The position numbers were made by a program, and so were the translations under genes. Below, piece after piece: positions 10,398 through 25,721 of a DNA stretch of 32,949 nucleotides. The stretch is from Calditrichaceae bacterium. Lineage in GTDB: Bacteria > Calditrichota > Calditrichia > Calditrichales > JBFXGD01. The stretch lies in the NCBI GenBank assembly GCA_050173015.1, contig JBFXLE010000033.1, forward strand, positions 1 through 32,949. The letters are read 5' to 3'. The notes below the pieces were generated by a model, which saw nothing but the letters and a program-made list of their open reading frames with translations, was not told the DNA's origin and ran no database searches. Position 1 is the stretch's first letter, and each line of letters begins with the position of its first letter.

Positions 10398-12803
10398 CTA
10401 ATCCGTTAATTTTTTAAGATGCTCTCCGGCGATTAACGCGTTTTGGCTCAAAGAGTCAATTCTCAGACAATTTTTAAAATATTGGATGGCGAGCTCTGGA
10501 TTATTTGCTTCCTCATAAATGATACCCAGCATGTAATAGGCATCACTGAACCCCGAATCAATATTTATTGTTTTGTAAAATTCATCTTTCGCGGCATCCG
10601 GATTACCCGCAAAAAACAATGACATTCCTAATCCGTTATGATATTCAGCAATTGGTTCTCCAAGAGACAGGGCTTTTTCATAATGATCAGATGATGGTTT
10701 AAACATCCCCACTTCAAAATATGATGAGGCCAGATCCGCGTGTATATCCGTAATCCTGATTCCGCGTTCCTGCATGCTTTTAATATAGAGGTCTTCGTAG
10801 AGCTGTGATTTGGCGGAGTCTTCTGTTTCCAGACTGAGGATCGAGAGCAAACAGTAAATTTGCGGAAATACGGGCTTAATCTGAATGGAACTTTCCAGTA
10901 CATTTTTTGCCTTGTCACGGTCACCGGTTTGAAAATAACTCGCGCCAAGCAAATAATAAGCCGGTGAATATTCCCATTCCATTTCAACAATATTTTTTAG
11001 CGTTTGAATACTACCACTATAATCGTTCATCATATATAAAATTCTGGCAAGACTAAACAAAAGGATATTATTCTGCGGTGAATACTCCAAAGCGATTCGC
11101 AGATATCTCGCCTGCGCCGGATAATCATTCGCGATCATTGCCCCGGCCCAGTCGATCATTACTTCCTCGAAAGGAGTAGCGTTCGATTCCAGTTTACGCA
11201 GAATTTCGTAGTGCGTATTTGCCTGTTCCACATCTTGCTGTTGCATCAGTTTTGATATTAGCCAGATTCTCGGAGACAAAAACGTGGAATCAAGCTCAAT
11301 GGCGCGCAGCAGGTATTTTTCCGCGGCGGGATCCAGGCGAAAATTATACTGTCCCGCCTGAATAAACGCTTGTATGGCCGGTATGTTTTCTGAGCCGGTC
11401 CTTATCCAGGGCGCGATATCCGTTGCCTTGGTGGACGATATAAATTTTAACCGCAGATGGTTAAGAATTTTCACCACTATACTGTCAATTTCCTGCAAAA
11501 TATTATCTTCATCGATTAATGACCGGCTGTAAGAAAATTTGATTTCAGCGGTTTGTGATTCGACTACGCTTGATTGAAGCAGCAGCTTATTGCCAAATTG
11601 TGTGATAGTGCCGTCAACAACATAAACGATTCCAATTTCTCTGAGCCTCCTGTAGAGCGCTTCATCTCTTATAGGCGCCGTTCCGTCCTCCGAACTTCTG
11701 ATCAATCCGTTAAGACTTAAGGGATCAACAATTCCCAGCTCTTTAACACCGGTTAATTCTCTAACTATCAGATTCTGGATAAGCATGGGAAGACCTTTGG
11801 ATTCAATATTTTTTGTTAGCGTCCGGAAGGGAAGTACCCCAACACGCCACCGGTCATCCACCGGCGCCGAATTCAGGGAAATCCTGCTCGACGCGACCCA
11901 GAAAACAGTCAAAGCCACTAATGATGCGGCAATAAAATAAGTGACCGTTTTAGTCAGTTTGCGTTTTATCCCATACATTAGTCCGGCTGATTTACCCTCG
12001 AGCAGCTCCAAAACTTCCATCATCGACTGCGGACGCAAATCCGGATTTTTTTCCAGACAAAGGTCACACAATTTTTCCAGAAGAATTCTTTTTTTATGAT
12101 TGGATGGATCTATTTTCACGGGTTTTTCGTGCAGGATTGAGTAAATGACTGCCTGTTCATAATCTCCCCGAAAAGGCAGCTCTCCGGTCAACATTTCATA
12201 CAAAACAACGCCAAAGGACCAGATATCGGTTCGATGATCCACCGGATCGCCTCTGGCCTGTTCAGGAGACATATAACCTACTGTTCCCAGCGCTATACCT
12301 GTTTTTGTCAATTTTGTCTGACCTGAAAATTTGGCCAGCCCAAAATCCAGAATCCTTACCATCCCATTCGGACTAATGACAATATTGGATGGTTTTATAT
12401 CTCTGTGGATGATACCCGCATGATGAGCGCAGTTTAATCCTCGGGCTAATTGGCGTGTAATTCTCAAAATCATATCAGTTTCGAGGGGCCCGGTTCCAAG
12501 CAGGGTTTTAAGAAGATTTCCTTCGCAATAGGGCATACAAATATACAACTGACCGTCATCAGTTTCATTTATTTCATATATACTGCATATGTTTGTATGC
12601 TCTAATTTTGATACAGCCAGGGCTTCGTGAATAAATCTTTTTTTAGATTCCTCATCCCTTGTCAATTCCGGCGGGAGAAATTTAAGCGCGACTTTGCGAC
12701 CTAATTTAATATCTTCCGCCATATAAACGATTCCCATCCCGCCCCCGCCGATTTGTTTCAGAATATGGTAATGGGAAACCTTTTCACCTACGCGAACAGA
12801 CAT
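10398..12803 (-). CDS. Membrane Hanks-type Ser/Thr kinase with TolB_N/FlgO-like and TPR extracytoplasmic domains
   Basis: GGGGMG, VALK, HRDIKPSN, DFG and YMSPEQ motifs; TM at ~aa 287-305; VGVLPF; multiple TPRs. Confidence 0.93.
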   Translation of the reverse strand: MSVRVGEKVSHYHILKQIGGGGMGIVYMAEDIKLGRKVALKFLPPELTRDEESKKRFIHEALAVSKLEHTNICSIYEINETDDGQLYICMPYCEGNLLKTLLGTGPLETDMILRITRQLARGLNCAHHAGIIHRDIKPSNIVISPNGMVRILDFGLAKFSGQTKLTKTGIALGTVGYMSPEQARGDPVDHRTDIWSFGVVLYEMLTGELPFRGDYEQAVIYSILHEKPVKIDPSNHKKRILLEKLCDLCLEKNPDLRPQSMMEVLELLEGKSAGLMYGIKRKLTKTVTYFIAASLVALTVFWVASSRISLNSAPVDDRWRVGVLPFRTLTKNIESKGLPMLIQNLIVRELTGVKELGIVDPLSLNGLIRSSEDGTAPIRDEALYRRLREIGIVYVVDGTITQFGNKLLLQSSVVESQTAEIKFSYSRSLIDEDNILQEIDSIVVKILNHLRLKFISSTKATDIAPWIRTGSENIPAIQAFIQAGQYNFRLDPAAEKYLLRAIELDSTFLSPRIWLISKLMQQQDVEQANTHYEILRKLESNATPFEEVMIDWAGAMIANDYPAQARYLRIALEYSPQNNILLFSLARILYMMNDYSGSIQTLKNIVEMEWEYSPAYYLLGASYFQTGDRDKAKNVLESSIQIKPVFPQIYCLLSILSLETEDSAKSQLYEDLYIKSMQERGIRITDIHADLASSYFEVGMFKPSSDHYEKALSLGEPIAEYHNGLGMSLFFAGNPDAAKDEFYKTINIDSGFSDAYYMLGIIYEEANNPELAIQYFKNCLRIDSLSQNALIAGEHLKKLTD

Positions 12804-13296: not shown

Positions 13297-14307
13297 TTAA
13301 TTGTTATCCGCCAGTAGGCTTAACTGCCAGACATCATGATTCGATCGGTGAAGTATTGGAGACAGAGCCAGTTTCCCCGCTTTACCGATGCTCTTTCCCA
13401 AAAAATCCAGTTCCGCCAATTTTTCGTTTATTTCATCATCGAACAACACCGGAAAGCCGTTCGCTTTCATTAAAAGAATACCCTTCGCGCGAATTGAAAG
13501 CTCAAGATGAATCCTGAGATAACATAACATATCTCCTATAATCAGACTCCGGAATCCACTTTTTAGGGAATGCAGATACTTTCCTGTTTTTGTTTCACTA
13601 AAATTGCCGGATGAAATATAATCAAGCATTTGCACATCTCCGTCAAGCCCTTCTTCCAGCCAATCACATAGTATTTTTTCGCTTATATTGAATATGATTA
13701 CTAAAAACAGGGGCAGAAGCAAAAGCTGGAATATTGTAAGTATATGCGGCGGAACAAGAAAATGATTGAACAGCGAGTGAATCCCAATCGCTAAAACAAT
13801 ACCGGGAATAAAAACAAAAAATTTTCCCGATACGTTTTTATCGAACCACATCTTTGAAATCACCGCGAATATTGCCGTTGTCCCGCCATGCATCATTGCT
13901 GTTCCAAAACCGCGGACAGTCCATAAGAAGAAATCGTTGTTTTCAAGTCGCGACAGATAATAAATGTTTTCGATGACGGCAAATCCCGCGCCTGCCGCGA
14001 ATCCCAGTACCGCGCCATCCACCATAAAACCTATCCTATAGGATTTAATCATATAAAAGATGAATACCGCCTTGAAAAACTCTTCGATTCCCGGAGAAAC
14101 ATATCGTGAATATGCCGTAAACTCCATTGATCCGTTTGACAGAAGAAACCGGTTGATCCCCATACTGAAAAGCGCGGAAACCATTCCCGCAAAAACTGCA
14201 ATCAGAATTTTCTTTATCCCGGTCAGCTTGTATGTGTCAATAAAAACAAGCGCGATTAAAAAGACAAATACCGGAATAATACTTATAAATATATTGAACG
14301 CGTTCAT
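13297..14307 (-). CDS. prsW: PrsW-family intramembrane glutamic/metallo-protease
   Basis: PGIEEFFK, GFAVIEN, AMMHG and HSLFN motifs; multiple TMs; TAATG overlap with the upstream gene. Confidence 0.9.
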   Translation of the reverse strand: MNAFNIFISIIPVFVFLIALVFIDTYKLTGIKKILIAVFAGMVSALFSMGINRFLLSNGSMEFTAYSRYVSPGIEEFFKAVFIFYMIKSYRIGFMVDGAVLGFAAGAGFAVIENIYYLSRLENNDFFLWTVRGFGTAMMHGGTTAIFAVISKMWFDKNVSGKFFVFIPGIVLAIGIHSLFNHFLVPPHILTIFQLLLLPLFLVIIFNISEKILCDWLEEGLDGDVQMLDYISSGNFSETKTGKYLHSLKSGFRSLIIGDMLCYLRIHLELSIRAKGILLMKANGFPVLFDDEINEKLAELDFLGKSIGKAGKLALSPILHRSNHDVWQLSLLADNN

Positions 14308-17243
14308 TATAATATCTTTAATGAAATCATAAATTCATCCGTCGTTTTTTTATTTTGTTCAAATGCCCGCGCGTAGCCAATTGAAAATGTGACTTTCAAA
14401 TGCGACATTACAATCAACCGAAAATCTCCCTGCAGTCCGGCGTTACTCAAAGTCCTTCGGAATAATTCATTATCAAAGTCTGTAATCAGTCCCGATGAGA
14501 AAAGTGAAAACCGCGCCCAGGACATATAAAATGATGGGATACCCGCATGGCGAAATCTCAGCGGCGGCAAATTCCATTCGATCATAAAACGGTCGTAATT
14601 TTTCCCTGCGGCGGCGTTGATCTCCAAACCCGGGAAACTATAATACTCTCTGTAACGCTTTTCCGGCCTGTAATCCACCCAATTGTTCCCAAAGCCTCCA
14701 AAATAATAATTGGTGAACGGATTATTTCGGTCTCCCCAGGCATGACCAATAGAGTTTCTCAACCAGACTGAAGAGTGATTTATCGCGAGCGGAAATCCGA
14801 GATGCATATTCATGAATATGTGCGGATATAATACTCCATTAACCTGATAATTATATGAATTTAGCTCCCATTCAAATCCTTTTTCATAATCAACCGAGCC
14901 AAGAGATGAGGTCATATTTCCATATTTAAAACCGGCGCCGAATGTCTGAAACCGGTCATAGGTTGTCCCGATATTCTGGTAATCCGGTAATCGTTTAAGA
15001 TTACCGTAATGAGTCAAAAACATGGACAGATCCATCGATTTGGGCAGGTCCGACAGAAGTGACTTTTCATACCGCAGCCCCGCTGAATACCCTTTACGAC
15101 TCACTTTTGTCGGACCAAAGAGATCGTAGAAATCAGCGTAATTATATTTTAAATCCGCTTTCCAGTTCAGATAACGATATTGCATGCCCGCGTGTATTTT
15201 TTCAGAATCCGTTAAATTGTTTTGCGGAGAATAGGAACCTGTGACACTCATATCATGCAGACCCAACGGACTCGAAATGTTCAATCGCGCGCCAAATGCG
15301 GTGTAATCTTTATAACCTTCCAGGACGGGATACGCCGAAACAAGTGACAGATGGCTAAGTTCTGAGTATTCTCCGGTGGACATGGTCATGGAATCAATAT
15401 TGACGTTTGCCGGGGAATCCGCCAGCCAGTCTTTAACGATGGGATATCGGGTAACGATTTCTTGTCCGAGATACTGAATGGCGCTGACTTTCTCCACAGG
15501 TTGAATCCACATTTTAACCGGATCAAATCCTTTTCCGGTATATCTGAACACGATCAGTGAATCGTCTGACACCGGAATCGGCCTGAAAAATCCGGTTTCA
15601 CAATTACTGAGCGCTTCCATATCATTCATCTCAAAATTATACCGGAAGATATTCGACACACCTGAATAATAGGACGAACCGTATAAAAACCTGTCGTCCG
15701 GTGAAAACAAAAAATTCGCCGGATTGCTGTTTTCAAAGTCAAACAGGATATCATAGGAATATACGCCTTTTAACAAACTGTCCACCGGCATCATAATCAA
15801 CTGCTGACGCCCGTTTATTTCAGCCAGCGCGCCGCTCAGAAACTTACCGTTATGAGAAATATCGATATCGTACATATCTTTTCCATAAGGCCATGAATAG
15901 ATCTGCTTCCAGTCATGATAGGGATACTCCATTCTCACAACCGTTGATATTCCGTTAAAATGCCGGATACCCCAAAGGGATTTATCTTGCGCGTTGAAAA
16001 CCAGGTCGCCTATTCTGGCATCCTTCATCAGAACACTCGATTTACCGCTTTTTAAATCAAACAGATTGATATCACGCCAGCCATCATTATCGGTTGTATA
16101 ATAAATGATTTTTTCAGTCTGGTCATATGCCAGTGAGGTGACGTAATAAAGCGCGGCTCCTTTTATATCACAGATCTTTTTAATATTCGGCATATCGGTA
16201 TCCAGTTCCGCGATATGCGCGATCTGACCGGGATAATTCACCGCCGCGTAAAGTTTTTGGTTTGTGGAATCGTAATACGCTCTTGAAACGGAACCAAGAG
16301 GGTTGTGAGAAAGATTTTTGTATGGTGTAACCGGATTAGCCCGGATTCGATCAAGATTGGCCTGCTGAAACTCATGTTCCCACGCGATCCATTTACTCCA
16401 CTCCTTATCCATCGAAAAGCCGTATATTTTTTTGAACTGCGACGCGAAATAGGCTCTGCTGCCGTCTCTCCTTTCCGCCCATTGAACCAATTTTTCCGGG
16501 CCATAGGTATACGCGAGGTAACTCATAAAACGGGTTCCGTAGAGATAGGATACAACCCCCACCTGAAAATCGGTCTTCATACCTTCCGACTCCAGTCCAA
16601 CCAGATCATAAATTTGGACACTGTCTCTTTCCATTGTGCGGAATACCATCTCATCATACGCGCCAAGCGCCCGGCCTATGCCCCCTGCCATCCAGGTATC
16701 CAGAAACACGGCGATACCCTCCCTATACCATCTTGGTGAATATTTTCGCGGAACCGTCAAATAACCGTAAAACATGGAAAGCGGATTTTCATGATCGGGC
16801 CTGACTTTGCCCATAAACACCGTCCGGAAAAACCGGTCGCTTTTTGAAGTTTGATCCAGGGTAACGATATGCACGAGTTCATGATTCATAATGGAATTCA
16901 TGCGCTCATTGGCCGGCACCGTTTCGTATGTGTAGCTGTATGGCGCTATACCGACAATAATAATATTATTCGGGATTGTCCCCGCCGCCGCATTGCCAAA
17001 ATCGCTGAAATCATGCAGAAATACAGTGACTTTTTCCTGGGGATGATAATTAAACAACTGACGGTGGTACAGATAGGAATTTTCAAAACATCTGGCCACA
17101 TGTTTTTCGAGATAGGCATTTGTTTTACCAATCGAAACCAGACGGAGATCATTCGTTTCAATGACATTAAACTGTCCCGAACAGGGAATTACCGAAATCA
17201 GGAATATGATTATTAATTTAAAAATCACTTTATTAAAAGTCAT
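14307..17243 (-). CDS. Exported protein: gluzincin-like peptidase domain + beta-propeller + probable outer-membrane beta-barrel
   Basis: Signal peptide; NHELVH...PRWYREGIA zinc motif; TolB/PD40-like repeats (FSPDDRFL, ISHNGKFL); alternating amphipathic strands at the C-terminus. Confidence 0.8.
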   Translation of the reverse strand: MTFNKVIFKLIIIFLISVIPCSGQFNVIETNDLRLVSIGKTNAYLEKHVARCFENSYLYHRQLFNYHPQEKVTVFLHDFSDFGNAAAGTIPNNIIIVGIAPYSYTYETVPANERMNSIMNHELVHIVTLDQTSKSDRFFRTVFMGKVRPDHENPLSMFYGYLTVPRKYSPRWYREGIAVFLDTWMAGGIGRALGAYDEMVFRTMERDSVQIYDLVGLESEGMKTDFQVGVVSYLYGTRFMSYLAYTYGPEKLVQWAERRDGSRAYFASQFKKIYGFSMDKEWSKWIAWEHEFQQANLDRIRANPVTPYKNLSHNPLGSVSRAYYDSTNQKLYAAVNYPGQIAHIAELDTDMPNIKKICDIKGAALYYVTSLAYDQTEKIIYYTTDNDGWRDINLFDLKSGKSSVLMKDARIGDLVFNAQDKSLWGIRHFNGISTVVRMEYPYHDWKQIYSWPYGKDMYDIDISHNGKFLSGALAEINGRQQLIMMPVDSLLKGVYSYDILFDFENSNPANFLFSPDDRFLYGSSYYSGVSNIFRYNFEMNDMEALSNCETGFFRPIPVSDDSLIVFRYTGKGFDPVKMWIQPVEKVSAIQYLGQEIVTRYPIVKDWLADSPANVNIDSMTMSTGEYSELSHLSLVSAYPVLEGYKDYTAFGARLNISSPLGLHDMSVTGSYSPQNNLTDSEKIHAGMQYRYLNWKADLKYNYADFYDLFGPTKVSRKGYSAGLRYEKSLLSDLPKSMDLSMFLTHYGNLKRLPDYQNIGTTYDRFQTFGAGFKYGNMTSSLGSVDYEKGFEWELNSYNYQVNGVLYPHIFMNMHLGFPLAINHSSVWLRNSIGHAWGDRNNPFTNYYFGGFGNNWVDYRPEKRYREYYSFPGLEINAAAGKNYDRFMIEWNLPPLRFRHAGIPSFYMSWARFSLFSSGLITDFDNELFRRTLSNAGLQGDFRLIVMSHLKVTFSIGYARAFEQNKKTTDEFMISLKIL

Positions 17244-17269
17244 TAAGTATAATATCCTCCCGGATTATT

Positions 17270-17450
17270 GCAGCTTCCGAATGAGCTGCCTGGCGAACAA
17301 ATACCGCAACCGTGCCGGGGGTTTCCCCATATCTGATAAAACACAGAAAGGAAATGCCAATTTCTTGACATTTCCCCTTCTGCTGCCTGTGATCCCCCCT
17401 CACGGCCTGAAAGAAAAATTTTTAGTAAATGCGGCGCTGATATTCTCAGC
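17270..17450 (-). other. Multi-hairpin structured intergenic region (candidate cis-regulatory RNA or processing site)
   Basis: ~18-bp stem with GAAA loop (17343-17383), GGG-GAAA-CCC (17318-17328), GCAGCT..TTCG..AGCTGC (17270-17289), plus further short stems. Confidence 0.45.
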
Positions 17451-17464
17451 AAATCTTCTGATTC

Positions 17465-18340
17465 CTAATACTCTTTTTTTACCATGATTCTCTGAAAATC
17501 TTTTTCAGCTATTATTCTCTGAAATTCTTTATCCGCCATGATTTTTTGATAATCCTTATCAGACATTAATCTTTGAAATTCCTTGTCAGCCATAATTCTT
17601 TGGAATTCTTTATCTGCCATGATACGCTGATAGTCTTTATCCGCCAGAATTTTCTGAAAATCTTTATCAGCCATTATTCTCTGAAATTCCTTATCTGCCA
17701 TAATCCGCTGGTACTCTTTATCCGCTAATATTCGCTGGAAATCTTTATCTGACATTATTTTCTGAAATTCTTTGTCCGATTTGACGCGTTGAAAATCTTT
17801 ATCCGACATAATTTTTTGAAAATCCTTGTCTGCCATTATCCGCTGCATGTCTTTATCGGCTATAATTCTCTGGAATTCTTTATCCGCCATGATTCTCTGA
17901 TAATCTCCATCAGCCATAATCCGCTGATAATCGGTATCAGCAAGGACGCGTTGATAGTCTTTATCCGCCATAATGCGCTGCAAATCCTTATCGGCCATCA
18001 TTCGTTGTAATTCCTTATCGGCCATGATCCGCTGATATTCTTTGTCGGCAATTATTCTCTGGAAATCCCCGGAAGCCACTATTTTTTGGAAATCCGCGTC
18101 TGCCAATAGTTTTTGGAATGTGTCATTCTGCAACAAATTCTGAATTTCCGGACTATCCAGTTTCACATCCGTTTCGCTGATCTGGTCCGCGCGGTACTTA
18201 TCCGCTTTTTCCACGCCTCCGATGGTGCCTTCCACACCGTCCGAATTTGGTGGCGGATACAGGAGCGAGAAATAAAGAATTATCGCGACAATGACCGCCG
18301 CGCCCCCAAATAACGATGTTTTTCTTGATTGTGAATTCAT
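17465..18340 (-). CDS. Membrane-anchored protein with 23 tandem 9-aa repeats [AS]DK[DE][FY]Q[RK]I[MIL]
   Basis: N-terminal TM, a GTIGG linker, then repeats filling aa 80-291; G6 SD upstream. Confidence 0.9.
   Translation of the reverse strand: MNSQSRKTSLFGGAAVIVAIILYFSLLYPPPNSDGVEGTIGGVEKADKYRADQISETDVKLDSPEIQNLLQNDTFQKLLADADFQKIVASGDFQRIIADKEYQRIMADKELQRMMADKDLQRIMADKDYQRVLADTDYQRIMADGDYQRIMADKEFQRIIADKDMQRIMADKDFQKIMSDKDFQRVKSDKEFQKIMSDKDFQRILADKEYQRIMADKEFQRIMADKDFQKILADKDYQRIMADKEFQRIMADKEFQRLMSDKDYQKIMADKEFQRIIAEKDFQRIMVKKEY
17468..18103 (-). repeat. Coding 27-bp tandem repeat (~23.5 units)
   Basis: 27-nt periodicity with many synonymous differences between units. Confidence 0.95.
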
Positions 18341-18406
18341 AATACTATCCCCCCGATAGGTTGATGAACGTTTTATTATCTCCGTTTTTTCCTTGTCTCT
18401 ATAGTA

Positions 18407-18435
18407 AATACAAGGAGGAGATCAGAAAGTTGGTT
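18407..18435 (-). promoter_or_regulatory. Putative ECF promoter upstream of the repeat-protein gene
   Basis: AACCAACTTT-N12-TTGTATT (AAC-N16-TGTA); the same motif lies upstream of the sigma gene. Confidence 0.65.
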
Positions 18436-18441
18436 TTTGTT

Positions 18442-19209
18442 TCAATCCGCGATTATCGTTTTATGCGTAAATATGTTAGTATCCGGACCGGCAATGGTGA
18501 TTTTGAGGAGGGATTCAACGGTAATCGTTCGTTGGAATGTCAGAACACAGTCGAGATCATCAATATTTATTATCTCTAATTTACCTATTTGGGTATTTAA
18601 GCCGTGTTCACCCGGTGTCCGCAATCTGAAATTTTCGAACAATAGATGCTCATTGTCGTACTCCACAAACAGATCATACTGCTCTTCACCCCTTAAATCT
18701 GTCTCAATCCGGATAAGGTCTTTGGTCTGGACAACTTTAATGCTCCCCTTAATTCCGTTTGTGTGAACAGAAACTGATTCAACCACCGGGTTATACATCT
18801 GTTTTTCAAGTCCCATAGTTCCATAGAGACTGCTATTATCAACGCGTATATTTAGCGGCCATAATACAATAACGATAATTCCAAAAAGAACACCCAGAGC
18901 GAAGGTGAACGCCATTTTCGGACGCGGGGATGAGAACCAGTTTTGAATCATTTCCTGAACATTCCCGCGGTATGGATCCCGAGCGTATTTCTCTTTATTT
19001 ATAGAATCCATGATTCTTTCACGCATTTTTTCGGGAACATCCGCCTGCGGTACTTTATCAAGCAATACCACTGTTTCTTTCAATTCCTGATAAAAAATTT
19101 TGGCATCGGCGTGCTCCAGGAGATATCCCGTGAGTAGTTTTCGCTCTCCCGCGGATATTACTCCGTCAAGTTCTTTATGCATGAGTTCGATATATTTCTC
19201 ATCAATCAT
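18442..19209 (-). CDS. Transmembrane anti-sigma factor
   Basis: Overlaps the ECF sigma stop (ATGATTGA). N-terminal ELDG.IS..E...L..YL helix pattern lacks the HxxxCxxC cysteines. Single TM, then a beta-rich external domain. Confidence 0.8.
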   Translation of the reverse strand: MIDEKYIELMHKELDGVISAGERKLLTGYLLEHADAKIFYQELKETVVLLDKVPQADVPEKMRERIMDSINKEKYARDPYRGNVQEMIQNWFSSPRPKMAFTFALGVLFGIIVIVLWPLNIRVDNSSLYGTMGLEKQMYNPVVESVSVHTNGIKGSIKVVQTKDLIRIETDLRGEEQYDLFVEYDNEHLLFENFRLRTPGEHGLNTQIGKLEIINIDDLDCVLTFQRTITVESLLKITIAGPDTNIFTHKTIIAD

Positions 19210-19750
19210 TTTGTAACATACCATATTTTAGTAGAACATCTTTTAACATCTGCCGGGCGGTAAAAAGTCGTGATTTAACTTTTTTTTCCGGGATATCGGC
19301 TATGTAGGCGATCTCTTCGTAACTGCATCCCTGGAAATGTTTTAATATGATCAGTATCCGGTAATTATAAGGCACTTCCATTAAGGCTTCCTGAATCCTT
19401 TCATTTCTCTCCCATTCTTCAAAGATCTCGTCCGGAGTTTTCCCTTTTGAAACCATACCTTCCGTCAAAGTTTCGATACGCTTTCGCTGATTCAAATAAT
19501 TGAGTGTTTCATTTAAGGCAATCCGGTATATCCAGCTGAAAAACTTGTATTTTGGATTAAATGATCTCAGGTTTTCATAAACCTTGATAAAAACCGATTG
19601 AGTGATATCCTCCGCGTCATCGAATCTGTGAATCATTCGGTAAACCACATTAAAGATGGTTTTTTGATACTTATCCACCAGAATTTCAAATGATTTTATA
19701 TCACCCTTGATACATTTCTTTACCAGGATTGAATCATTGCTTTCACTCAT
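19202..19750 (-). CDS. ECF RNA polymerase sigma factor
   Basis: Region 2 (DAEDITQSVFIK, FFSWIYRIALN) and region 4 (SYEEIA, VKSRLFTAR); 182 aa. Confidence 0.95.
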   Translation of the reverse strand: MSESNDSILVKKCIKGDIKSFEILVDKYQKTIFNVVYRMIHRFDDAEDITQSVFIKVYENLRSFNPKYKFFSWIYRIALNETLNYLNQRKRIETLTEGMVSKGKTPDEIFEEWERNERIQEALMEVPYNYRILIILKHFQGCSYEEIAYIADIPEKKVKSRLFTARQMLKDVLLKYGMLQND

Positions 19751-19779
19751 AATACAATCTGACTATAAAAAAGTTGGTT
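19751..19779 (-). promoter_or_regulatory. Putative autoregulatory ECF promoter/binding motif
   Basis: AACCAACTTT-N12-TTGTATT directly abutting the sigma ATG. Confidence 0.55.
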
Positions 19780-19813: not shown

Positions 19814-20098
19814 TCACTCAATTTCAAAAATCATATCGAACCCGGCATATGTAAATACTTCTTTTATATGCCGGTTCATATTTTTTAATTTTAATCGATG
19901 TCCGGAGTTATTCAGGCGTTTCTGCGTCATTAATAAAACGCTCAGACCCGCGCTGGATATGTAATCAAGATTCTCAAAATTTACATCGCATGAACTGATG
20001 ATTTCTTCAAACACGGCTTTTGCCTTATCCGTCTGAGCCGCGTCTAAACGGCCAGAAAGCAAAACAGTACTATCTTCTCCCAATTTAATTTCAAACAT
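19814..20098 (-). CDS. STAS-domain anti-sigma-factor antagonist (RsbV/SpoIIAA-like)
   Basis: LSGRLDA and LDYISSAGL phosphoacceptor motif. Confidence 0.9.
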   Translation of the reverse strand: MFEIKLGEDSTVLLSGRLDAAQTDKAKAVFEEIISSCDVNFENLDYISSAGLSVLLMTQKRLNNSGHRLKLKNMNRHIKEVFTYAGFDMIFEIE

Positions 20099-20516
20099 TT
20101 GTCCGCCTTAATTTTTTCACCAAAGTGATTACCGCTTTATTTTCACCATACTCATATTCAATCCGGTCAACATATTGTGTCGCGAGATGAACACCTATTC
20201 CCCCGGTCTCACGATCAGTCAGGGTTCGGGTTGTGTCATATTTTTTTGCTTTTCTGATATCAAATCCTTTTGTATTGAATTCACTCATTCTCACAATCAA
20301 TTCATCCTCCGCGCGCATGAGTGTGATCAATATGTCCTCTTTATTATCAGCGTTGTATTTTACCATATTTGTAAATAATTCCTCGACCGCGAGGGACAAT
20401 CCAAACGCGGAATCTTCATCCACATCGCTTCTTTTAACAAATTCGTCGATAAACTCAAAAACTTTCTCCACTTCCCGAAGGCTTCTTTTAAAACGTTTTT
20501 CCATTTCATTCCGCAT
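20091..20516 (-). CDS. RsbW/SpoIIAB-like anti-sigma serine kinase (HATPase_c)
   Basis: LAVEELFTNMVKY N-box and GGIGVHL G-box. Confidence 0.9.
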   Translation of the reverse strand: MRNEMEKRFKRSLREVEKVFEFIDEFVKRSDVDEDSAFGLSLAVEELFTNMVKYNADNKEDILITLMRAEDELIVRMSEFNTKGFDIRKAKKYDTTRTLTDRETGGIGVHLATQYVDRIEYEYGENKAVITLVKKLRRTNV

Positions 20517-20531
20517 AAAATTTGTTTTGAC

Positions 20532-21857
20532 TTAAATTATTTTTATCGCGATCATGGCGATATCATCCGCCTGAGCGGCATCCCCGGTAAAACGCCGGAG
20601 TTCCTTTTTTACAGATTCTATGACCATCCCGGCGGATTCGCGCGCGGATATTTTCACCGCGCTCATCATTCTCTCCATCTGAAACATCTCTTCGTCGCCG
20701 TTGACCGATTCTGTCACCCCGTCAGTGTAAATAAAAATCTGATCGCCGGAATTCAATGCTGACTTGTGCAATTGATAATCATAATTCGGCGATACATTCA
20801 GCGCGCAGCCTTTGACTTCAATCATCTTCAGGGAATCATCCGATCCGCGGTAAAACAGGAAAGGATTATGTCCCGCGTTTGAATAGTACAGGACCTTTTC
20901 ACGGAAGTCGATCACCAGAAAGAGCATGGTTACAAATAATTCAGGAGGTAAAGTCCGACTTAAGATAGAATTGATTTCTCCCAGTCCCCGGTCGGCCGAA
21001 GTATAGTTTAATGTAATCGATTGCAGGATGCCTTTGATCATCGTCATCACCAGCGCCGCGGAAGGACCGTGACCTGACACATCGGCAATGACGATTCCCG
21101 TTTTTTGATCACCGAGGTCAAAGAAATCAAAATAGTCTCCGCCGACAGCATCCGCCGGAAGAAAATAACTTGCCACATCCATCCCCGGAGATTGTGGGTT
21201 CTTTTCAGGTAGCAGACTTTGCTGCATCTTGCGGGCGAGATCCAATTCATTTTCAAGCCGTCTTTTCTCATGCGCTTCTGTTTGTAACTGCGAATTACGG
21301 ATCAGCTGTCCCGATTGAGCCGCGATGATAGAGAGAAGTCTTAGATCGTCTGGAGTAAAAGGAGTTTCCGTTTTTTTATTGGTGACCATCAAAACGCCAA
21401 TTATTTTCGCCTTTAACCAGATCGGAACACAAAGTATACTGCGGATGTCTTCCTGTTCTTTCAAAGTGGTTTTGAAGCGATCATCCTCCGCGAGATGATC
21501 CACCAATAACGGTTGACGGTGCTTTAGTACCCAACCCGTGATATGCGTACCCACTCTGTAGGTCATTAATCTGCCTGAATGATCCGCCTGCCTGATTAAT
21601 GTCTGAAGCGGTTTGTCCTTCTGTTCCGTCACCAGCAAAATTGAACCCTGTTCGGCTTTAACCGCTTTGATCGATTTCTCTACAATCAGATCCAGCATCT
21701 CATCCAGTTCAGAGGCTCTGCCCGCGGCGATAGCCAGTTCATTTAGAACGGTCAACTCATCAACCGCTGATTTTAGCCTTTCAACTTCGTTTTGAAGACG
21801 GAGGATTTCAGACATTTCTTTGTCTGCTATTTTTTGCTGTGTGGTGGATTGATTCAT
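20532..21857 (-). CDS. Coiled coil-GAF-PP2C (SpoIIE/RsbU-like) phosphatase
   Basis: VGGDYFD, ADVSGHG, NAGH, YTDGVTE and DDIAM motifs; GAF NKK..F...D. The G5 SD favours a start at 21857 (MNQST). Confidence 0.93.
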   Translation of the reverse strand: MNQSTTQQKIADKEMSEILRLQNEVERLKSAVDELTVLNELAIAAGRASELDEMLDLIVEKSIKAVKAEQGSILLVTEQKDKPLQTLIRQADHSGRLMTYRVGTHITGWVLKHRQPLLVDHLAEDDRFKTTLKEQEDIRSILCVPIWLKAKIIGVLMVTNKKTETPFTPDDLRLLSIIAAQSGQLIRNSQLQTEAHEKRRLENELDLARKMQQSLLPEKNPQSPGMDVASYFLPADAVGGDYFDFFDLGDQKTGIVIADVSGHGPSAALVMTMIKGILQSITLNYTSADRGLGEINSILSRTLPPELFVTMLFLVIDFREKVLYYSNAGHNPFLFYRGSDDSLKMIEVKGCALNVSPNYDYQLHKSALNSGDQIFIYTDGVTESVNGDEEMFQMERMMSAVKISARESAGMVIESVKKELRRFTGDAAQADDIAMIAIKII

Positions 21858-21923
21858 TCCACCCCCTGACATTAAAACATAAACCGGCTTTACCGGATGT
21901 TTTATGAACTTTTAATCCGGCTC

Positions 21924-22268
21924 TCACGAAGATTTGTAGTGTTCTACGGCTTTGTCAACGGATTCATAAATTTCAAAAACACGCACTAATTGAGTCATCA
22001 CGAAGATACTGCGCACTTTCTCTGTCAGCCTAGACAAACATAATTCTCCTCCGGCATTACGCACCGTCGTCAGACTGCGCATCAATGCACCGACTCCCAT
22101 ACTGTTCATCCAGTTTACTCCCTGAAGATCAATAACAATTTTTTTCGCTCCACCGCCAATTAAGCTTCGAACTTCGTTGTGCAGATCATCGGTTTCCGGG
22201 AAACCCATAATTTTCCCTTTTAACCATAAAATCCCCACTTCTCCATCAATTTTGTCTTTGGTTTTCAT
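21924..22268 (-). CDS. STAS-domain anti-sigma-factor antagonist
   Basis: IVIDLQGVNWMNSMGVG motif; start reassigned to MKTKDK after a G6 SD. Confidence 0.88.
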   Translation of the reverse strand: MKTKDKIDGEVGILWLKGKIMGFPETDDLHNEVRSLIGGGAKKIVIDLQGVNWMNSMGVGALMRSLTTVRNAGGELCLSRLTEKVRSIFVMTQLVRVFEIYESVDKAVEHYKSS

Positions 22269-22529
22269 TGAGCCCCCCACAATTAAGGATAAAGATGAAA
22301 TGTAGTTGTAATTTCTAAGATTAGACCGGAATATTTTATAAATTTTCACACAAAAAGAAGTAGGAAATGTAATAAATCGTATTCCGCGCAGAAAAAAGTG
22401 GCGCTCGTTTCCAGACCGGATCATACGGTAAATGAAATGACGGTTCTGACTCAGCCTATCTGCCGGAAATCTAAATATGAAATTAGTAAAAGTAAACGAT
22501 TGATTTTTTTTCTACGTTCTCCTAAATGA

Positions 22530-22958
22530 TCATTCAACAACGATTTGAGGTGGTGATCCTCCTGTCGCGAACTCCAGATCCGCCAGACAAAAAACAGCAT
22601 ACGGATTTGGCCCTTTTTTAGCCAGATTTCCCACTGTCACCCGGAATTCTTCGCCGTCATCAATTGTATGGGTATATTTTCCAACAAGCTTCTGATCTAA
22701 AAACTGAATAAATACTTTTGATCCGTACGCGGTCCAGATTATCTTATCGCCTTTTTTTACAACAACGGTCGTATTTGTGGTATCAGCAGCCTGGACGACT
22801 TTCCATCCCTTATTTTTTACTTTCAGTATTGAGAGATGATGCTCTTTAGACGCGTTCTGAGCATTTAATAAAAATGAAGGAGCCGGCGCCGCCGCAAAAA
22901 GAACCGCGATGATCAGCAACGATAGAACACCATATAAAATTTTGATCGATCTCATCAT
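22530..22958 (-). CDS. Secreted small beta-sandwich (cupredoxin-like) protein
   Basis: Signal peptide; VVVKKGDKIIWT and PYAVFC segments; C-terminal SPPQIVVE. Confidence 0.75.
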   Translation of the reverse strand: MMRSIKILYGVLSLLIIAVLFAAAPAPSFLLNAQNASKEHHLSILKVKNKGWKVVQAADTTNTTVVVKKGDKIIWTAYGSKVFIQFLDQKLVGKYTHTIDDGEEFRVTVGNLAKKGPNPYAVFCLADLEFATGGSPPQIVVE

Positions 22959-23117: not shown

Positions 23118-25721
23118 TCATTCCAGATAACGCTTAAAACTTTCATCGGCCAGTAATTCGCGCAATTCCGGCTGATTTAGAATTTCAGATTTCGAATACC
23201 CGTTTTCCAACGCCTTCCCGATCCAGACAATCGCTTTTTTTCTCTCACCTAATTGTTCATAAACTGTTCCGGCTTCATACATGACATGGATGCTTTTTGG
23301 CGCTATTTTAATGGCCCGTTCGATCATCAATTCTGCCTTGATTCTGTTTCCGGTTATCGCGTAGTATCCCGCAAGGCGCGACGTGATATCCGGATCATTT
23401 GGATTAATCAATCTTCGTGTCTCGGCCAGTTCAATCGCTTTTTGATAAAACTTCTGAGCGTTTTTTCTTTCTTCCGGAATCCAGTAATATGCGGATGCCA
23501 GATTTCCCCAGATCAAAAAATCATTCTCATTCATTTCCAGGGCCGCCTTATACATCTCCGCGGCTTGCGTAAATTTCCCTTCAATAAAGTAAAGGGTTCC
23601 TAAGTTTGACGCCACCAGATACGACTTTTGTAACCTGAATGACTGCTCAAACATTTCCCCGGCCTTTTTCCATTTTTCCTGCATATAATAAATACCGCCT
23701 ATATTATTATATCCGCGGCTGTTATCGGGTGTAAGTCTGACGACATGCTGAAATTCTTTAATCGCTTCATCAAAACGACCGTGCCGGTAATAATACACTC
23801 CAAGATCATTATAGCCTGCCCAATAATCCGGTTTCAGTTCGATGGCTTTTTTAAAAGTGACCTCCGCTTCATTGAAGAGCTCCTGCGATTCATATGCTTT
23901 TGCCAAACCGCGGTAGGCATCGGCATCGGTCGGATTAATCTTTAACGCCCGGCTGAAATCCTGTACTGCCTCTTCATATTTTCCGGTACCGGCGTGAACC
24001 ATCCCAAGAGCTGTATTTACCGGCGCCAGGCGGGCATTTAGAACAAATGCCTTTTCACAGGAGGCAACAGCCAAATCCGCATATTCAACTTCTTTTGACG
24101 CGTAAAACTTTCTCCAGTAAGCCTCCCCGAGCCCCGCGCGCGCCTGGGCGTACAGGGAATCACGTTTTAAAGCCTGACTGAACAAACTGATCGCCGCGTC
24201 GATATTTTCGTACTCTTCATATCGCTGGAGATAACCACGACCCTGAAGATAAAATTCATAGGCCAGCGGATCACTCGTTCCCCCTTCTCTTAGCACTTTG
24301 TGTGATTCGGGATTGAGCCTGAGATTGAGCATCGTCATTAGTTTTCCTACAGATCTGTCCTGCAACAATGTCAAATCCGCTTCTTTTACATCAATGACGG
24401 TAGAGCTGATTTGCCTCAAAGTCGATGCATCCACAAGCGTTAGAGTCAGACGAAAAACATCCTTCAATAACTGCAGACTGCCCGTCACCGCGATATTCGC
24501 TCCAAAAATCCGGTGCGCCTCCCCCGGACTGCTGATACCATTTCGACGCACTTCACTGAACGGCACAACCCAAAGCGATCCATGGAATTGCTCAAGCTGT
24601 GACATATTACTGGTGAGTATTTCCGCCAGACCGTCACAAAGAGCGGCCTGCCCCGGATCTCCTCCGATATTCGTTAGAGGCAGCACAAGCAAATGCTGCA
24701 CATCAGGTACCCCGGAAGTTAACAGTTCGGTGCTGATATTACCGAACCTGCCCGTAAGAATGATTCCCGCGAGTATTATAATAATCACGATTGCTGAAAA
24801 TTTTACGGTTTTCTGGTTAAAGAAAACCATCCGCCCAATTCCTTTGGCGGATTTGGTACGTGTGTCCGGGTCCTGCGTCTCATTGGAGTAGATATTATTC
24901 AGATCAGCCAGAACTTCCCGCATGGATTGATAACGGAATTCCGGCTCCTTCTCGAGACACTTTGATATAATCCCGGCCAGCCGCGGCGGAACATCCCGAT
25001 TAATTTCTAAAACCGGGACCGGTTCATCATTTACAATAGAATACATCACGGCCTGTTCATAGGGTCCGCTAAACGGCACTTGTCCGGTTGGCAGCTCGTA
25101 CAAAACAACACCAAACGACCAGATATCGGACCGCTGATCGGCCTCGTCTCCCTTGGCCTGCTCCGGTGACATATAAGCCGCCGTGCCAAGCGTGGATCCG
25201 ACAATCGTGAGCTGTGGATTTCCCCGGATCTTTGCCAGTCCAAAATCCATGATTTTTATTATTCCGTCGCTTGTGAGCATAATATTACTGCTCTTTATAT
25301 CGCGGTGAATGATTCCCTTTTCATGCGCCGTATTCAATCCGGTTGCAGCCTGAATCGCGTAACTGATCAACTCATCCGGAGATATCGCGGGTATTTTAAT
25401 ATCATCATTCGGCTTCTCCCGTCCATCCTGAATGATATCTTTTAGTTCCTGCCCGTTGATATACTCCATAACGATAAATATTTCATCATCCACTTCCTCA
25501 ATGGCATGAACGGTTGCAATATTAGGATTGTTAAGCGATGCGGCTGCTTTTGCTTCAGTTTTGAACCGTTCTTTTTCCTTTGGATCGATACTCACCTGAC
25601 GCGGTAAAAATTTGATGGCCACACGCCTCTCGAGCTTTGTGTCTTCGGCGAGATAAACCACTCCCATACCGCCTTCACCGATTTTTTCGATGATGTGATA
25701 ATGTGAGATTGATCTGATCAT
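23118..25721 (-). CDS. Membrane Ser/Thr kinase with TolB_N-like and TPR domains
   Basis: GEGGMG, HRDIKSSN, DFG and YMSPEQ motifs; TM; LLVLPL; ~10 TPRs. Close paralog of 26205..28820. Confidence 0.93.
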   Translation of the reverse strand: MIRSISHYHIIEKIGEGGMGVVYLAEDTKLERRVAIKFLPRQVSIDPKEKERFKTEAKAAASLNNPNIATVHAIEEVDDEIFIVMEYINGQELKDIIQDGREKPNDDIKIPAISPDELISYAIQAATGLNTAHEKGIIHRDIKSSNIMLTSDGIIKIMDFGLAKIRGNPQLTIVGSTLGTAAYMSPEQAKGDEADQRSDIWSFGVVLYELPTGQVPFSGPYEQAVMYSIVNDEPVPVLEINRDVPPRLAGIISKCLEKEPEFRYQSMREVLADLNNIYSNETQDPDTRTKSAKGIGRMVFFNQKTVKFSAIVIIIILAGIILTGRFGNISTELLTSGVPDVQHLLVLPLTNIGGDPGQAALCDGLAEILTSNMSQLEQFHGSLWVVPFSEVRRNGISSPGEAHRIFGANIAVTGSLQLLKDVFRLTLTLVDASTLRQISSTVIDVKEADLTLLQDRSVGKLMTMLNLRLNPESHKVLREGGTSDPLAYEFYLQGRGYLQRYEEYENIDAAISLFSQALKRDSLYAQARAGLGEAYWRKFYASKEVEYADLAVASCEKAFVLNARLAPVNTALGMVHAGTGKYEEAVQDFSRALKINPTDADAYRGLAKAYESQELFNEAEVTFKKAIELKPDYWAGYNDLGVYYYRHGRFDEAIKEFQHVVRLTPDNSRGYNNIGGIYYMQEKWKKAGEMFEQSFRLQKSYLVASNLGTLYFIEGKFTQAAEMYKAALEMNENDFLIWGNLASAYYWIPEERKNAQKFYQKAIELAETRRLINPNDPDITSRLAGYYAITGNRIKAELMIERAIKIAPKSIHVMYEAGTVYEQLGERKKAIVWIGKALENGYSKSEILNQPELRELLADESFKRYLE

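Follow-up and report, generated by a model that had tools for sequence, protein, structure and literature searches.

Control of a sigma factor by a PrsW-type protease is known from single-membrane Firmicutes, the closest described case being the sigma-W/RsiW/PrsW/RasP system of Bacillus subtilis. The locus treated here lies on a 32,949-nt stretch of a Calditrichaceae bacterium genome (GenBank assembly GCA_050173015.1, contig JBFXLE010000033.1, positions 1 to 32,949), which is referred to as the window throughout. Between positions 13297 and 19779, five genes code for a sigma factor of the extracytoplasmic function (ECF) type, an anti-sigma factor, a membrane-anchored repeat protein, a large outer-membrane protein with zincin, propeller and barrel domains, and a PrsW-family intramembrane protease. 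In our reading, they are one instance of an envelope-signalling cassette that is widely conserved and works by regulated proteolysis; we put the probability of this reading at roughly 0.5. The cassette would be a double-membrane counterpart of the Firmicutes system.

Several parts resemble the sigma-W system. The top NCBIfam model for the sigma factor is SigW, far below its cut-off, and the SigW structure 5wuq is among its closest solved relatives. The anti-sigma factor is a single-pass protein, and its best solved match is RsiW (weak, E 0.023). The protease is a PrsW-family protein with the four catalytic motifs, and an M50 site-2 protease is encoded in the genome. The promoter-like motif is of the AAC-N16/17-GTA type, which we take to be that of the sigma-W consensus. 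There are also differences. The organism has two membranes, its prsW gene is found at the sigma locus, and this gene is coupled to that of an outer-membrane protein. PrsW carries an extra C-terminal domain of 130 residues, the anti-sigma factor is devoid of the zinc-binding Cys, and there is a second, substrate-like repeat protein that is probably sigma-induced. The RsiW cut site is much further from the membrane helix than the putative cut site here, which is only about 12 residues outside of it. In NCBIfam, the sigma factor and PrsW both fall well short of the respective equivalog cut-offs (SigW and PrsW).

The sigma-E/RseA/DegS/RseP system of Escherichia coli is alike in outline. It shares the RpoE-like sigma factor (1or7, 6.4e-25) and the single-pass anti-sigma factor, and the steps proposed here also comprise a periplasmic first cut followed by an M50 protease, an outer membrane and autoregulation of the sigma factor. 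The site-1 enzyme, however, would be PrsW, an intramembrane protease of the glutamic/metallo type, and not a PDZ serine protease. There is no RseB-like gene here, while an Omp85-type zincin protein and the repeat protein are added. The cassette is, therefore, not an equivalog of the sigma-W or the sigma-E pathway; it works like the first and, in outline, like the second.

Three further systems have to be considered, each as described in the available text of the cited papers. (i) The "WD40-like" subgroup of the Omp85 superfamily, with an N-terminal TolB-like propeller and an Omp85-type barrel, has been catalogued without a function (Heinz and Lithgow 2014, PMC4104836). The large protein is similar, as its propeller matches TolB and its barrel matches BamA, with the family identity being set by description only. 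It differs by the HExxH peptidase domain and the PrsW partner, neither of which is mentioned in the available text of that paper. (ii) In the Dma system, the anti-sigma factor spans both membranes and the sigma factor belongs to group ECF21, in bacteria of the Fibrobacteres-Chlorobi-Bacteroidetes (FCB) group (2024, PMC10927553). ECF control across both membranes in FCB-group bacteria is the common trait, but here the barrel belongs to a protein of its own that bears a protease, and there is a PrsW as well. (iii) PrsW proteins with intracellular domains have been read as signal-gated peptidases (Zhang et al. 2012, PMC3482391), as has the PrsW-PilZ of Leptospira, where an extra intracellular domain is attached to the PrsW core (PMC12943098). 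The PrsW of the cassette likewise has a core followed by an extra domain that is probably intracellular. Here, the domain is a helical bundle without a Pfam match, found only in this architecture.

We found no published description of the cluster in the literature, which agrees with the preliminary description, where the combination had not been recognised as a characterised system. In the available sections of the main text of the ECF reclassification paper (PMC7826278), PrsW, STAS and RsbW are not named, and the available part of its supplement names PrsW only for the Firmicutes groups ECF30 and ECF227.

Gene order and its conservation

The five open reading frames (ORFs) of the cassette are all on the minus strand. 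Directly upstream of the sigma gene are a STAS gene and an RsbW-like gene and, beyond these, a GAF-SpoIIE phosphatase gene and a second STAS gene. Listed in the direction of transcription, the cassette genes and the two conserved upstream members are:

20091-20516, minus strand: RsbW-like HATPase_c_2 kinase, 141 residues (HATPase_c_2 8.5e-16), conserved upstream member
19814-20098, minus strand: STAS anti-anti-sigma-like protein, 94 residues (STAS_2 8.3e-10), conserved upstream member
19202-19750, minus strand: ECF sigma factor, SigW/RpoE/AlgU-like, 182 residues (Sigma70_r2, r4_2, TIGR02937)
18442-19209, minus strand: single-pass anti-sigma factor, 255 residues from the ATG at 19209 (the 260-residue ORF spans 18442-19224)
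17465-18340, minus strand: membrane-anchored repeat protein, 291 residues
14307-17243, minus strand: large outer-membrane protein, 978 residues
13297-14307, minus strand: long PrsW-family intramembrane protease, 336 residues

The sigma and anti-sigma genes overlap by 8 nt (ATGATTGA) or by 23 nt, depending on the start codon chosen. The ATG at 19209 is the most likely start of the anti-sigma gene and gives the 8-nt overlap with the sigma stop codon; it fits the protein atlas record, which begins at residue 6. The TAA of the large gene and the ATG of prsW have one base in common (TAATG). The preliminary description had reported five co-oriented genes, with translational coupling at these same two junctions, and both statements hold.

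Loci for comparison were fetched from one genome per species with a profile of the large protein (22 sequences), and 70 loci were kept. When the genome contigs were scanned with the large protein as a single sequence, no relative was found, whereas the 22-sequence profile resulted in at least 819 matching stretches in species-representative genomes, at least 810 of which encode a relative. The protein is also common in metagenomes: of the 8,000 candidates that were scored, more than 7,000 are relatives. The 120 top-ranking ones have about 975-1000 residues throughout, with 55-61% sequence identity, and nearly all are unnamed. The 70 loci span at least 10 phyla and are labelled as Ignavibacteria, Bacteroidota, KSB1, Zixibacteria, Calditrichota, Latescibacterota, Eisenbacteria, Gemmatimonadota, Fibrobacteraceae, Marinimicrobia, Acidobacteria and others.

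The proteins of the window were searched against all ORFs of these loci. In 56 of the 58 loci with enough DNA downstream, the gene that follows the large gene is prsW, in the same orientation (of the other two, one has it on the opposite strand and one lacks it). A repeat-protein match immediately precedes the large gene in 51/58 loci. The sigma gene is upstream in 43 of 47 loci, and an anti-sigma match was obtained in 37/47. Within 6.5 kb of the large gene, a STAS gene is present in 46/47 loci and an RsbW-like kinase in 39/47. The spacing is equally characteristic: the gap from the large gene to prsW has a median of 6.5 nt (at most 60 nt in 54/60), and that from the sigma to the anti-sigma gene is at most 10 nt in 35/35, the genes mostly overlapping. 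The gaps on either side of the repeat gene are longer (median 109 nt from the anti-sigma gene and 115 nt to the large gene). The gene order RsbW-like kinase, STAS protein, ECF sigma factor, anti-sigma factor, repeat protein, outer-membrane zincin/propeller/barrel protein, PrsW is thus kept over many phyla. This recurrence in 70 loci shows that the grouping of the five genes is not due to chance, and it bears out the co-occurrence of the families that was expected from the preliminary description, the genes being kept together in nearly all of the loci. The conserved unit is larger than five genes, as it includes the upstream RsbW-like kinase and STAS protein.

Within its own phylum, the large protein has an orthologue (at least 50% sequence identity) in 12 of 56 genomes and any match in 17 of 56, the other five genomes containing only a paralogue with 29-34% identity. 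A long PrsW is encoded in 11 of the 12 orthologue genomes and adjoins the large gene wherever both are on one contig. It was found in none of the five paralogue-only genomes and in 3 of the 39 genomes without a large-protein match, two of these being fragments. On these counts, PrsW travels with the outer-membrane protein genome by genome. The single prsW of the genome analysed here is the one in the cassette; one other genome (G038) has two full large-gene/prsW pairs (C24:28894-32908 and C25:124789-128741). The distant paralogues (same length, in G002, G004, G016, G034 and G035) form a PrsW-independent branch of the family, with no PrsW match in these genomes.

A juxtamembrane motif shared by the repeat protein and the anti-sigma factor

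(a) The repeat protein consists of an N-terminal membrane helix (about residues 9-33), a conserved juxtamembrane segment and about 24 repeats of nine residues (ADKDFQRIM). At the DNA level, the 27-nt unit is present in 21.7 copies plus 2.4 more, and the copies agree in only 70% of positions, so that the array is old and not recently expanded. The unit differs by lineage (elsewhere DAAFQELLK, SDAFRAAMN, NPDFAKLLA or QVIPALER), and the proteins or arrays vary in length from about 220 to 1135 residues. What stays constant is the juxtamembrane segment, YPxP-x7-GTIGG-x-K-x(0-3)-KY-x2-Q-x4-DV-x-L, where G38, T39, G41, Q53 and D58 are invariant in 30 repeat-protein sequences.

(b) A related motif is found next to the membrane helix of the anti-sigma factor. 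The two positions are:

18215-18229, minus strand: G-T-I-G-G, residues 38-42 of the repeat protein, predicted PrsW recognition/cleavage site
18811-18822, minus strand: G-T-M-G of the anti-sigma factor (SSLYGTMGLEK)

GT[IMLV] was counted 24-42 residues past the start of the membrane helix, the background being 0.027 per 19-residue window. It is present in this interval in 51/56 repeat proteins and in 30/39 standalone anti-sigma factors, including that of the window. Among the 5,282 ORFs scored in the 4.34-Mb genome, the combination of such a helix and GT[IMV]G occurs in five. The anti-sigma factor and the repeat protein account for two of these; the remaining three resemble multi-pass membrane proteins.

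(c) In 11 of 60 repeat-type ORFs, an anti-sigma domain is fused N-terminally to the membrane helix and repeat array. The fused domain was detected with a profile from the standalone anti-sigma factors, at E-values from 7e-29 to 3e-7. Three of the fusions are from Ignavibacteriales, two from Bacteroidota, four from Gemmatimonadales and one from Balneolaceae, with one unclassified record. The fusion loci have no separate anti-sigma gene. As judged from these sequences, the anti-sigma factor and the repeat protein are two versions of one thing.

(d) The summed matches of the repeat protein to the Pfam domain STI1-HOP_DP reach 1.5e-15, but no single stretch passes, and this domain is annotated in 10-25% of the members of its atlas neighbours. 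In the atlas, the model of this protein is of low quality (predicted local distance difference test, pLDDT, 0.51). The likeness to the STI1/HOP DP and ubiquilin STI1 motifs is that of a short amphipathic motif; homology is not shown. The longest form is a Gemmatimonadota protein of 1135 residues (L027:4399-7806), which is built from an 8-residue unit (QVIPALER), interspersed with longer ones, and keeps the GTIG juxtamembrane motif. There is no sigma or anti-sigma match within 4.4 kb upstream of it.

PrsW and the model of its complex with the repeat protein

(a) PrsW matches PF13367 over residues 34-203 (65.1 bits, cut-off 23.5). The four catalytic motifs quoted for B. subtilis YpdC/PrsW, namely EExxK, FxxxE, H and HxxxD/N (available text of PMC12943098), are all intact. 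E75, E76, K79, F109, E113, H140, H177 and N181 are invariant in 36 orthologues.

(b) The model (pLDDT 90.6) has seven membrane helices, the last of which runs into a four-helix C-terminal domain (residues 205-336). Given the N-out topology stated for PrsW (available text of PMC12943098) and the positive-inside rule, this domain would be cytoplasmic. It has no Pfam match. A search with the domain resulted in 440 cluster representatives at E <=1e-3, all with this PrsW architecture only; among the rows listed, the matches cover about residues 200-340 of proteins with about 330 residues, or are shorter pieces. Foldseek searches at E <=0.001 returned no match for the PrsW model and none for the C-terminal domain. 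The closest structural match to PrsW is the gamma-secretase subunit APH-1 (8oqz_C), which is weak (E 0.082, template-modelling (TM) score 0.53 by target).

(c) A complex was modelled from PrsW (36-row alignment) and residues 1-85 of the repeat protein (30-row alignment). It scored 0.63, while the best of three controls scored 0.01. This level is reached by 116 of 157 solved complexes and by 2 of 215 mismatched pairs, counts that are rough, with our own alignments having been used. Contact agreement between the runs was at least 75%, and the pLDDT of the partner was at least 54. In the model, the membrane helix of the repeat protein packs on helices 1 and 7 of PrsW. The contacts with the lowest error are those of G38, T39 and I40 to E75, E113, T136, H140, H177 and N181 of PrsW. 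These residues include members of all four motifs and represent the catalytic centre. It is unlikely that the score reflects memory of a solved complex, because no close solved PrsW structure was found. The model supports the predicted binding of the repeat protein by PrsW.

(d) A site-2 protease of the M50 family is encoded elsewhere in the genome (C2:163323-164573, PF02163 215.8 bits).

Sigma factor, anti-sigma factor and putative promoters

(a) The sigma factor matches Sigma70_r2 (2.1e-15) and Sigma70_r4_2 (1.3e-11) from Pfam, as well as TIGR02937 (104.1 bits, cut-off 42.9). It has regions 2 and 4 only and is thus an ECF (group 4 sigma-70) factor. Its solved relatives are the AlgU-like 6in7, SigW (5wuq) and RpoE (1or7, 6.4e-25).

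(b) The anti-sigma factor consists of a probable N-terminal anti-sigma domain of class I (RsiW/RseA type), one membrane helix (about residues 104-122 in the numbering of the 260-residue ORF) and a periplasmic beta-rich domain. Its family matches are weak (NF052375, 1.5e-5, 25.1 bits against a cut-off of 100), and so is its best solved match, RsiW (5wuq_C, E 0.023), which covers residues 4-75. In the protein atlas, it falls only among unnamed clusters, with weak cohesin-like and RsiW-like structural rows (TM score <0.4).

(c) Three elements were recognised in the noncoding DNA of the cassette:

19752-19779, minus strand: promoter-like motif AACCAACTTT-N12-TTGTAT, sigma copy, a putative autoregulated ECF promoter, which ends 1 nt before the sigma ATG
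18408-18435, minus strand: promoter-like motif AACCAACTTT-N12-TTGTAT, second copy, upstream of the repeat gene
17347-17378, minus strand: terminator- or attenuator-like hairpin between the repeat gene and the large gene, 14 pairs with a U-rich tail (-25 kcal/mol, z -4.8)

An AAC-N17-GT spacing is the geometry of ECF promoters. The motif CCAACTTT-N12-TTGTAT has exactly two copies in the genome, one before the sigma gene and one before the repeat gene. A looser pattern matched seven times genome-wide, compared to 15 times for the reversed control. The five matches outside the cassette are at chance level, so that no further members of the regulon can be named. A third variant of the pattern matched only the copy before the repeat gene and misses the sigma copy because the latter ends in TGTATTA.

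(d) Across the loci, the motif was searched as CAAC-N15-17-TGTA within 150 nt upstream of a gene, the background being 0.008 per 140 nt. It precedes the sigma gene in 30/47 loci and the repeat gene in 22/53, and it occupies the same two positions in other phyla. It was not found upstream of the large gene (0/67), prsW (0/60), the anti-sigma gene (0/36), the STAS gene (0/44) or the RsbW-like gene (0/36). Judged from its sequence and distribution, the motif may represent a putative autoregulated sigma promoter plus one target, the repeat gene.

(e) An equivalent hairpin of 10-15 pairs, unrelated in sequence, is found in the spacer between the repeat gene and the large gene in 29/51 loci. None of 31 spacers between anti-sigma and repeat gene has one, and past prsW it was seen in 4 of 56 stretches. 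From the distribution of hairpin and motif, the repeat protein would be the inducible product, with the large gene and prsW being transcribed by read-through or on their own. The spacer hairpins often have a purine-rich 5' arm that holds GGAG(A/G) and a 3' arm that contains CTCC, their sequences being otherwise unrelated (L015, L017, L025, L029, L034, L040, L047, L071, L072, L073 and the hairpin at 17347-17378 of the window). With such arms, the hairpin may be more than a plain terminator.

The outer-membrane protein

(a) The model of the large protein has a pLDDT of 89.2 and a predicted TM score (pTM) of 0.87. A signal peptide is followed by a mainly helical zincin domain (about residues 25-300), a TolB-like propeller of the six-bladed type (about 305-580) and a BamA-like barrel (about 620-978).

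(b) The zincin domain is a candidate member of the MA clan, gluzincin type (HExxH plus a downstream Glu ligand). Its HELVH motif corresponds to residues 121-125 (16869-16883), and H121, E122, H125 and E175 are invariant in 60 homologues. The only family match, to Peptidase_MA_2, is weak (6.8e-4, 19.9 bits against 32.4, in 4 of 22 members). When the whole 978-residue model was used to search for folds, propellers took up the results and the zincin part was barely probed; no fold family is claimed for it.

(c) The propeller superposes on TolB (1c5k_A) with Z 22.8 and a root-mean-square deviation (rmsd) of 2.9 over 240 residues, and 2ojh_A gives Z 22.4. PD40 matches at the sequence level are weak (7/22 members).

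(d) The barrel has about 16 strands between residues 620 and 978 (DSSP). It resembles BamA from Deinococcus radiodurans (8xnb_B, Z 19.4, rmsd 4.2), with 289 of 369 residues aligned (chain 478-844). Omp85_2 sequence matches are weak (7/22 members). No POTRA domain was found ahead of the barrel in the model, where residues 25-580 are taken up by the zincin and propeller domains and only short helices are at 592-619. The Omp85 superfamily takes in non-POTRA forms (available text of Heinz and Lithgow 2014, PMC4104836). Invariant segments of the large protein in the 60 homologues are FGGxGNN and R-Y-R-E-Y. In Omp85 proteins, a loop-6 motif of the VRG[FY] type is conserved.

(e) By analogy to other Omp85 proteins, the zincin and propeller domains would be periplasmic. 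The profile of the large protein against PDB sequences found nothing below E 0.01. The protein belongs to a highly conserved family of probable outer-membrane protease/propeller/barrel proteins for which there is no Pfam model, and no studied member was found in the literature. That the large protein might be a core housekeeping gene product was considered and rejected on account of its patchy occurrence in the phylum (a match in 17/56 genomes, an orthologue in 12/56).

Proposed mechanism

PrsW would act as the site-1 protease and cut at or next to G-T-(I/M/L) at the periplasmic face of the inner membrane. The remaining anti-sigma stub would be removed by an RseP-type site-2 protease encoded elsewhere, and the freed sigma factor would transcribe its own operon and the repeat gene. 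The sigma-induced repeat protein, which has the best-conserved copy of the motif, would be a competing PrsW substrate. Such competition might provide negative feedback or keep the amount of the array in the periplasm at a fixed level. In the fused forms, the array would be the outer half of the anti-sigma factor itself. The outer-membrane protein is a candidate envelope-side partner that may either govern how accessible the repeat array is or break it down. This step is the weakest. The preliminary description had proposed that the protein senses, processes or exports the repeat protein; what has been observed is the tight coupling of its gene to prsW. As a speculation, the protease may be gated from inside the cell by its helical C-terminal domain and the phospho-signalling genes nearby.

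That PrsW releases the sigma factor had been proposed in the preliminary description. This gains support from the common G-T-(I/M/L) motif and from the complex model, which places the motif copy of the repeat protein in the catalytic centre. The circuit had also been called self-contained. This applies to the promoter-like motif, which is confined to the locus, and does not apply to the unit as a whole, which includes the upstream RsbW-like kinase (39/47 loci) and STAS protein (46/47) and would depend on a site-2 protease encoded elsewhere.

Several points weigh against a regulated-proteolysis cassette. The entire argument is built on sequence, synteny and models. PrsW is a member of its family and not the Bacillus equivalog (28.4 bits for NF033739, with a cut-off of 225), and the sigma factor is below the SigW equivalog cut-offs (120.8 vs 209 for NF007223 and 105.6 vs 243 for TIGR02948). 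The N-terminal 100 residues of the anti-sigma factor contain no Cys and have no zf-HC2 match in Pfam, and the H-x3-C-x2-C motif of the zinc-binding anti-sigma (ZAS) domain is absent. GT[IMLV] is missing from the counted interval in 9 of 39 standalone anti-sigma factors, and the complex model is one of an enzyme with a presumed substrate and covers only the motif copy of the repeat protein. The distance from TGTA to the sigma ATG is 2 nt here and 3 nt in 18 of 30 loci, which is unusually close for a -10 element. With TGTA abutting the ATG, either the sigma mRNA is leaderless or the motif has a role other than that of a promoter. Finally, the cassette is patchy in its own phylum (12/56 genomes with an orthologue, 17/56 with any match) and, therefore, not a core envelope function.

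If the regulated-proteolysis reading is correct, PrsW gains a defined recognition motif, and the cassette shows how uncultured carriers among the FCB group and the Acidobacteria report the state of their envelope. The cassette is common: its outer-membrane protein is encoded by at least 810 of the genomes that represent one species each, and over 7,000 metagenome proteins match it. It is widespread and unstudied, and the predicted cut site G38-T39-I40 in the repeat protein, with the matching GTM in the anti-sigma factor, makes it testable at the level of single residues. A regulon predicted to have two promoters adds to this, as do the fused and split forms that occur naturally and can be compared.

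Alternative explanations

(a) The repeat protein could be the real product of a processing or export pathway. PrsW would free it from its anchor, and the Omp85-type protein would export the array to the surface or trim it, as in two-partner secretion or in the "PrsW-dependent export" that has been suggested for polymorphic toxins. The sigma/anti-sigma pair would then set the expression level only. The repeat gene is indeed the sole non-regulatory gene behind a sigma-type motif, and its product varies in length (about 220 to 1135 residues) and has the best-conserved G-T-I-G-G, which is modelled in the active site of PrsW. The motif is, however, also kept in 30/39 standalone anti-sigma factors. 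Furthermore, in 11/60 loci the array is the outer half of the anti-sigma factor, so that cutting must affect the sigma factor too. The barrel resembles BamA (Z 19.4, rmsd 4.2, 289 residues), but export is not a known activity of BamA-type barrels that have a periplasmic propeller, and no export signal was identified. PrsW has been proposed as a releasing peptidase (Zhang et al. 2012, PMC3482391, available text). Overall, we consider a processing or export pathway rather unlikely; it overlaps with regulated proteolysis of the anti-sigma factor, and the two are partly compatible.

(b) Control of the sigma factor could be mostly cytoplasmic and lie with the RsbW-like kinase and the STAS proteins, along with the GAF-SpoIIE phosphatases and membrane Ser/Thr kinases. 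The functions of PrsW and the outer-membrane protein would then be co-regulated envelope housekeeping, and the anti-sigma factor would not be degraded on signal. This would account for the RsbW-like and STAS genes upstream of the sigma gene (39/47 and 46/47 loci) and for the three one-helix Ser/Thr kinases with a TPR region and the two GAF-SpoIIE phosphatases in the window. Co-regulation is not obvious, though, because neither the large gene (0/67) nor prsW (0/60) is preceded by a copy of the sigma-type motif. PrsW accompanies the cassette genome by genome, and the juxtamembrane motif and the complex model link it to the anti-sigma and repeat proteins. We regard this explanation as improbable.

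(c) The proposed mechanism can be extended to a homeostat with a sacrificial bait. The array would be a periplasmic bait or holdase that is consumed by the outer-membrane protein according to the state of the envelope, after which PrsW would cut the exposed G-T-(I/M/L) on bait and anti-sigma factor. The sigma factor would rebuild the bait, which would compete with the anti-sigma factor for PrsW. Freed fragments are possible ligands of the kinase TPR domains, and the kinases would in turn feed the RsbW/STAS/SpoIIE switch as well as PrsW's cytoplasmic domain. This would link three signalling modes and close a trans-envelope loop. Binding of the array by the TPR domains is an idea, and the extension as a whole is quite improbable in our view.

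(d) A fortuitous adjacency or local operon fusion without a common function is already contradicted by an order and coupling that are repeated in 70 loci of many phyla, and we give it next to no weight.

Neighbouring genes

Two further genes of the partner-switching type flank the cassette upstream of the RsbW-like gene:

20532-21872, minus strand: GAF + SpoIIE/PP2C phosphatase, 446 residues (SpoIIE 6.8e-46, GAF 4e-18)
21924-22424, minus strand: STAS-domain protein, 166 residues (Pfam STAS 1.5e-15; TIGR00377 above its cut-off)

A HATPase_c_2 kinase adjoining a STAS protein, together with a PP2C phosphatase, is the make-up of an RsbW/RsbV-type partner-switching module as judged by Pfam. In many of the loci, relatives of the GAF-SpoIIE phosphatase are encoded close to the cassette. 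The phosphatase has a paralog at 29665-30981 (minus strand), and the same 10-kb stretch holds the two STAS genes and the RsbW-like kinase gene.

Signalling genes on the minus strand extend from about 10.4 to 31 kb. They include three Ser/Thr kinases (10398-12803, 23118-25721 and 26205-28820, all minus strand). In each of them, the kinase domain is followed by a single membrane helix (about residues 286-325) and then by a TPR-rich region of about 500 residues that is presumably periplasmic. Many of the 70 loci likewise have relatives of these kinases close to the cassette. The C-terminus of the 867-residue kinase (23118-23270, minus strand) ends with NQPELRELLADESFKRYLE and matches NCBIfam TPR_END_plus (NF047558). 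This model is also matched by the nine-residue unit of the repeat protein, the common element being a short D-x-x-F-x-x-hydrophobic motif.

At least two ORFs that belong to no signalling family interrupt this series of genes (22530-22958 and 28852-29610, the latter assigned to ABM). The former, on the minus strand between a STAS and a kinase gene, codes for 142 residues with an N-terminal membrane helix. It has no Pfam or NCBIfam match, and a weak relative was found in one locus only (L006, E 7e-4). On the plus strand, 2327-6829 codes for an ordinary large helicase of the Lhr type with 1500 residues (DEAD, Helicase_C, WH_Lhr, DEAD_assoc, WH4_Lhr).

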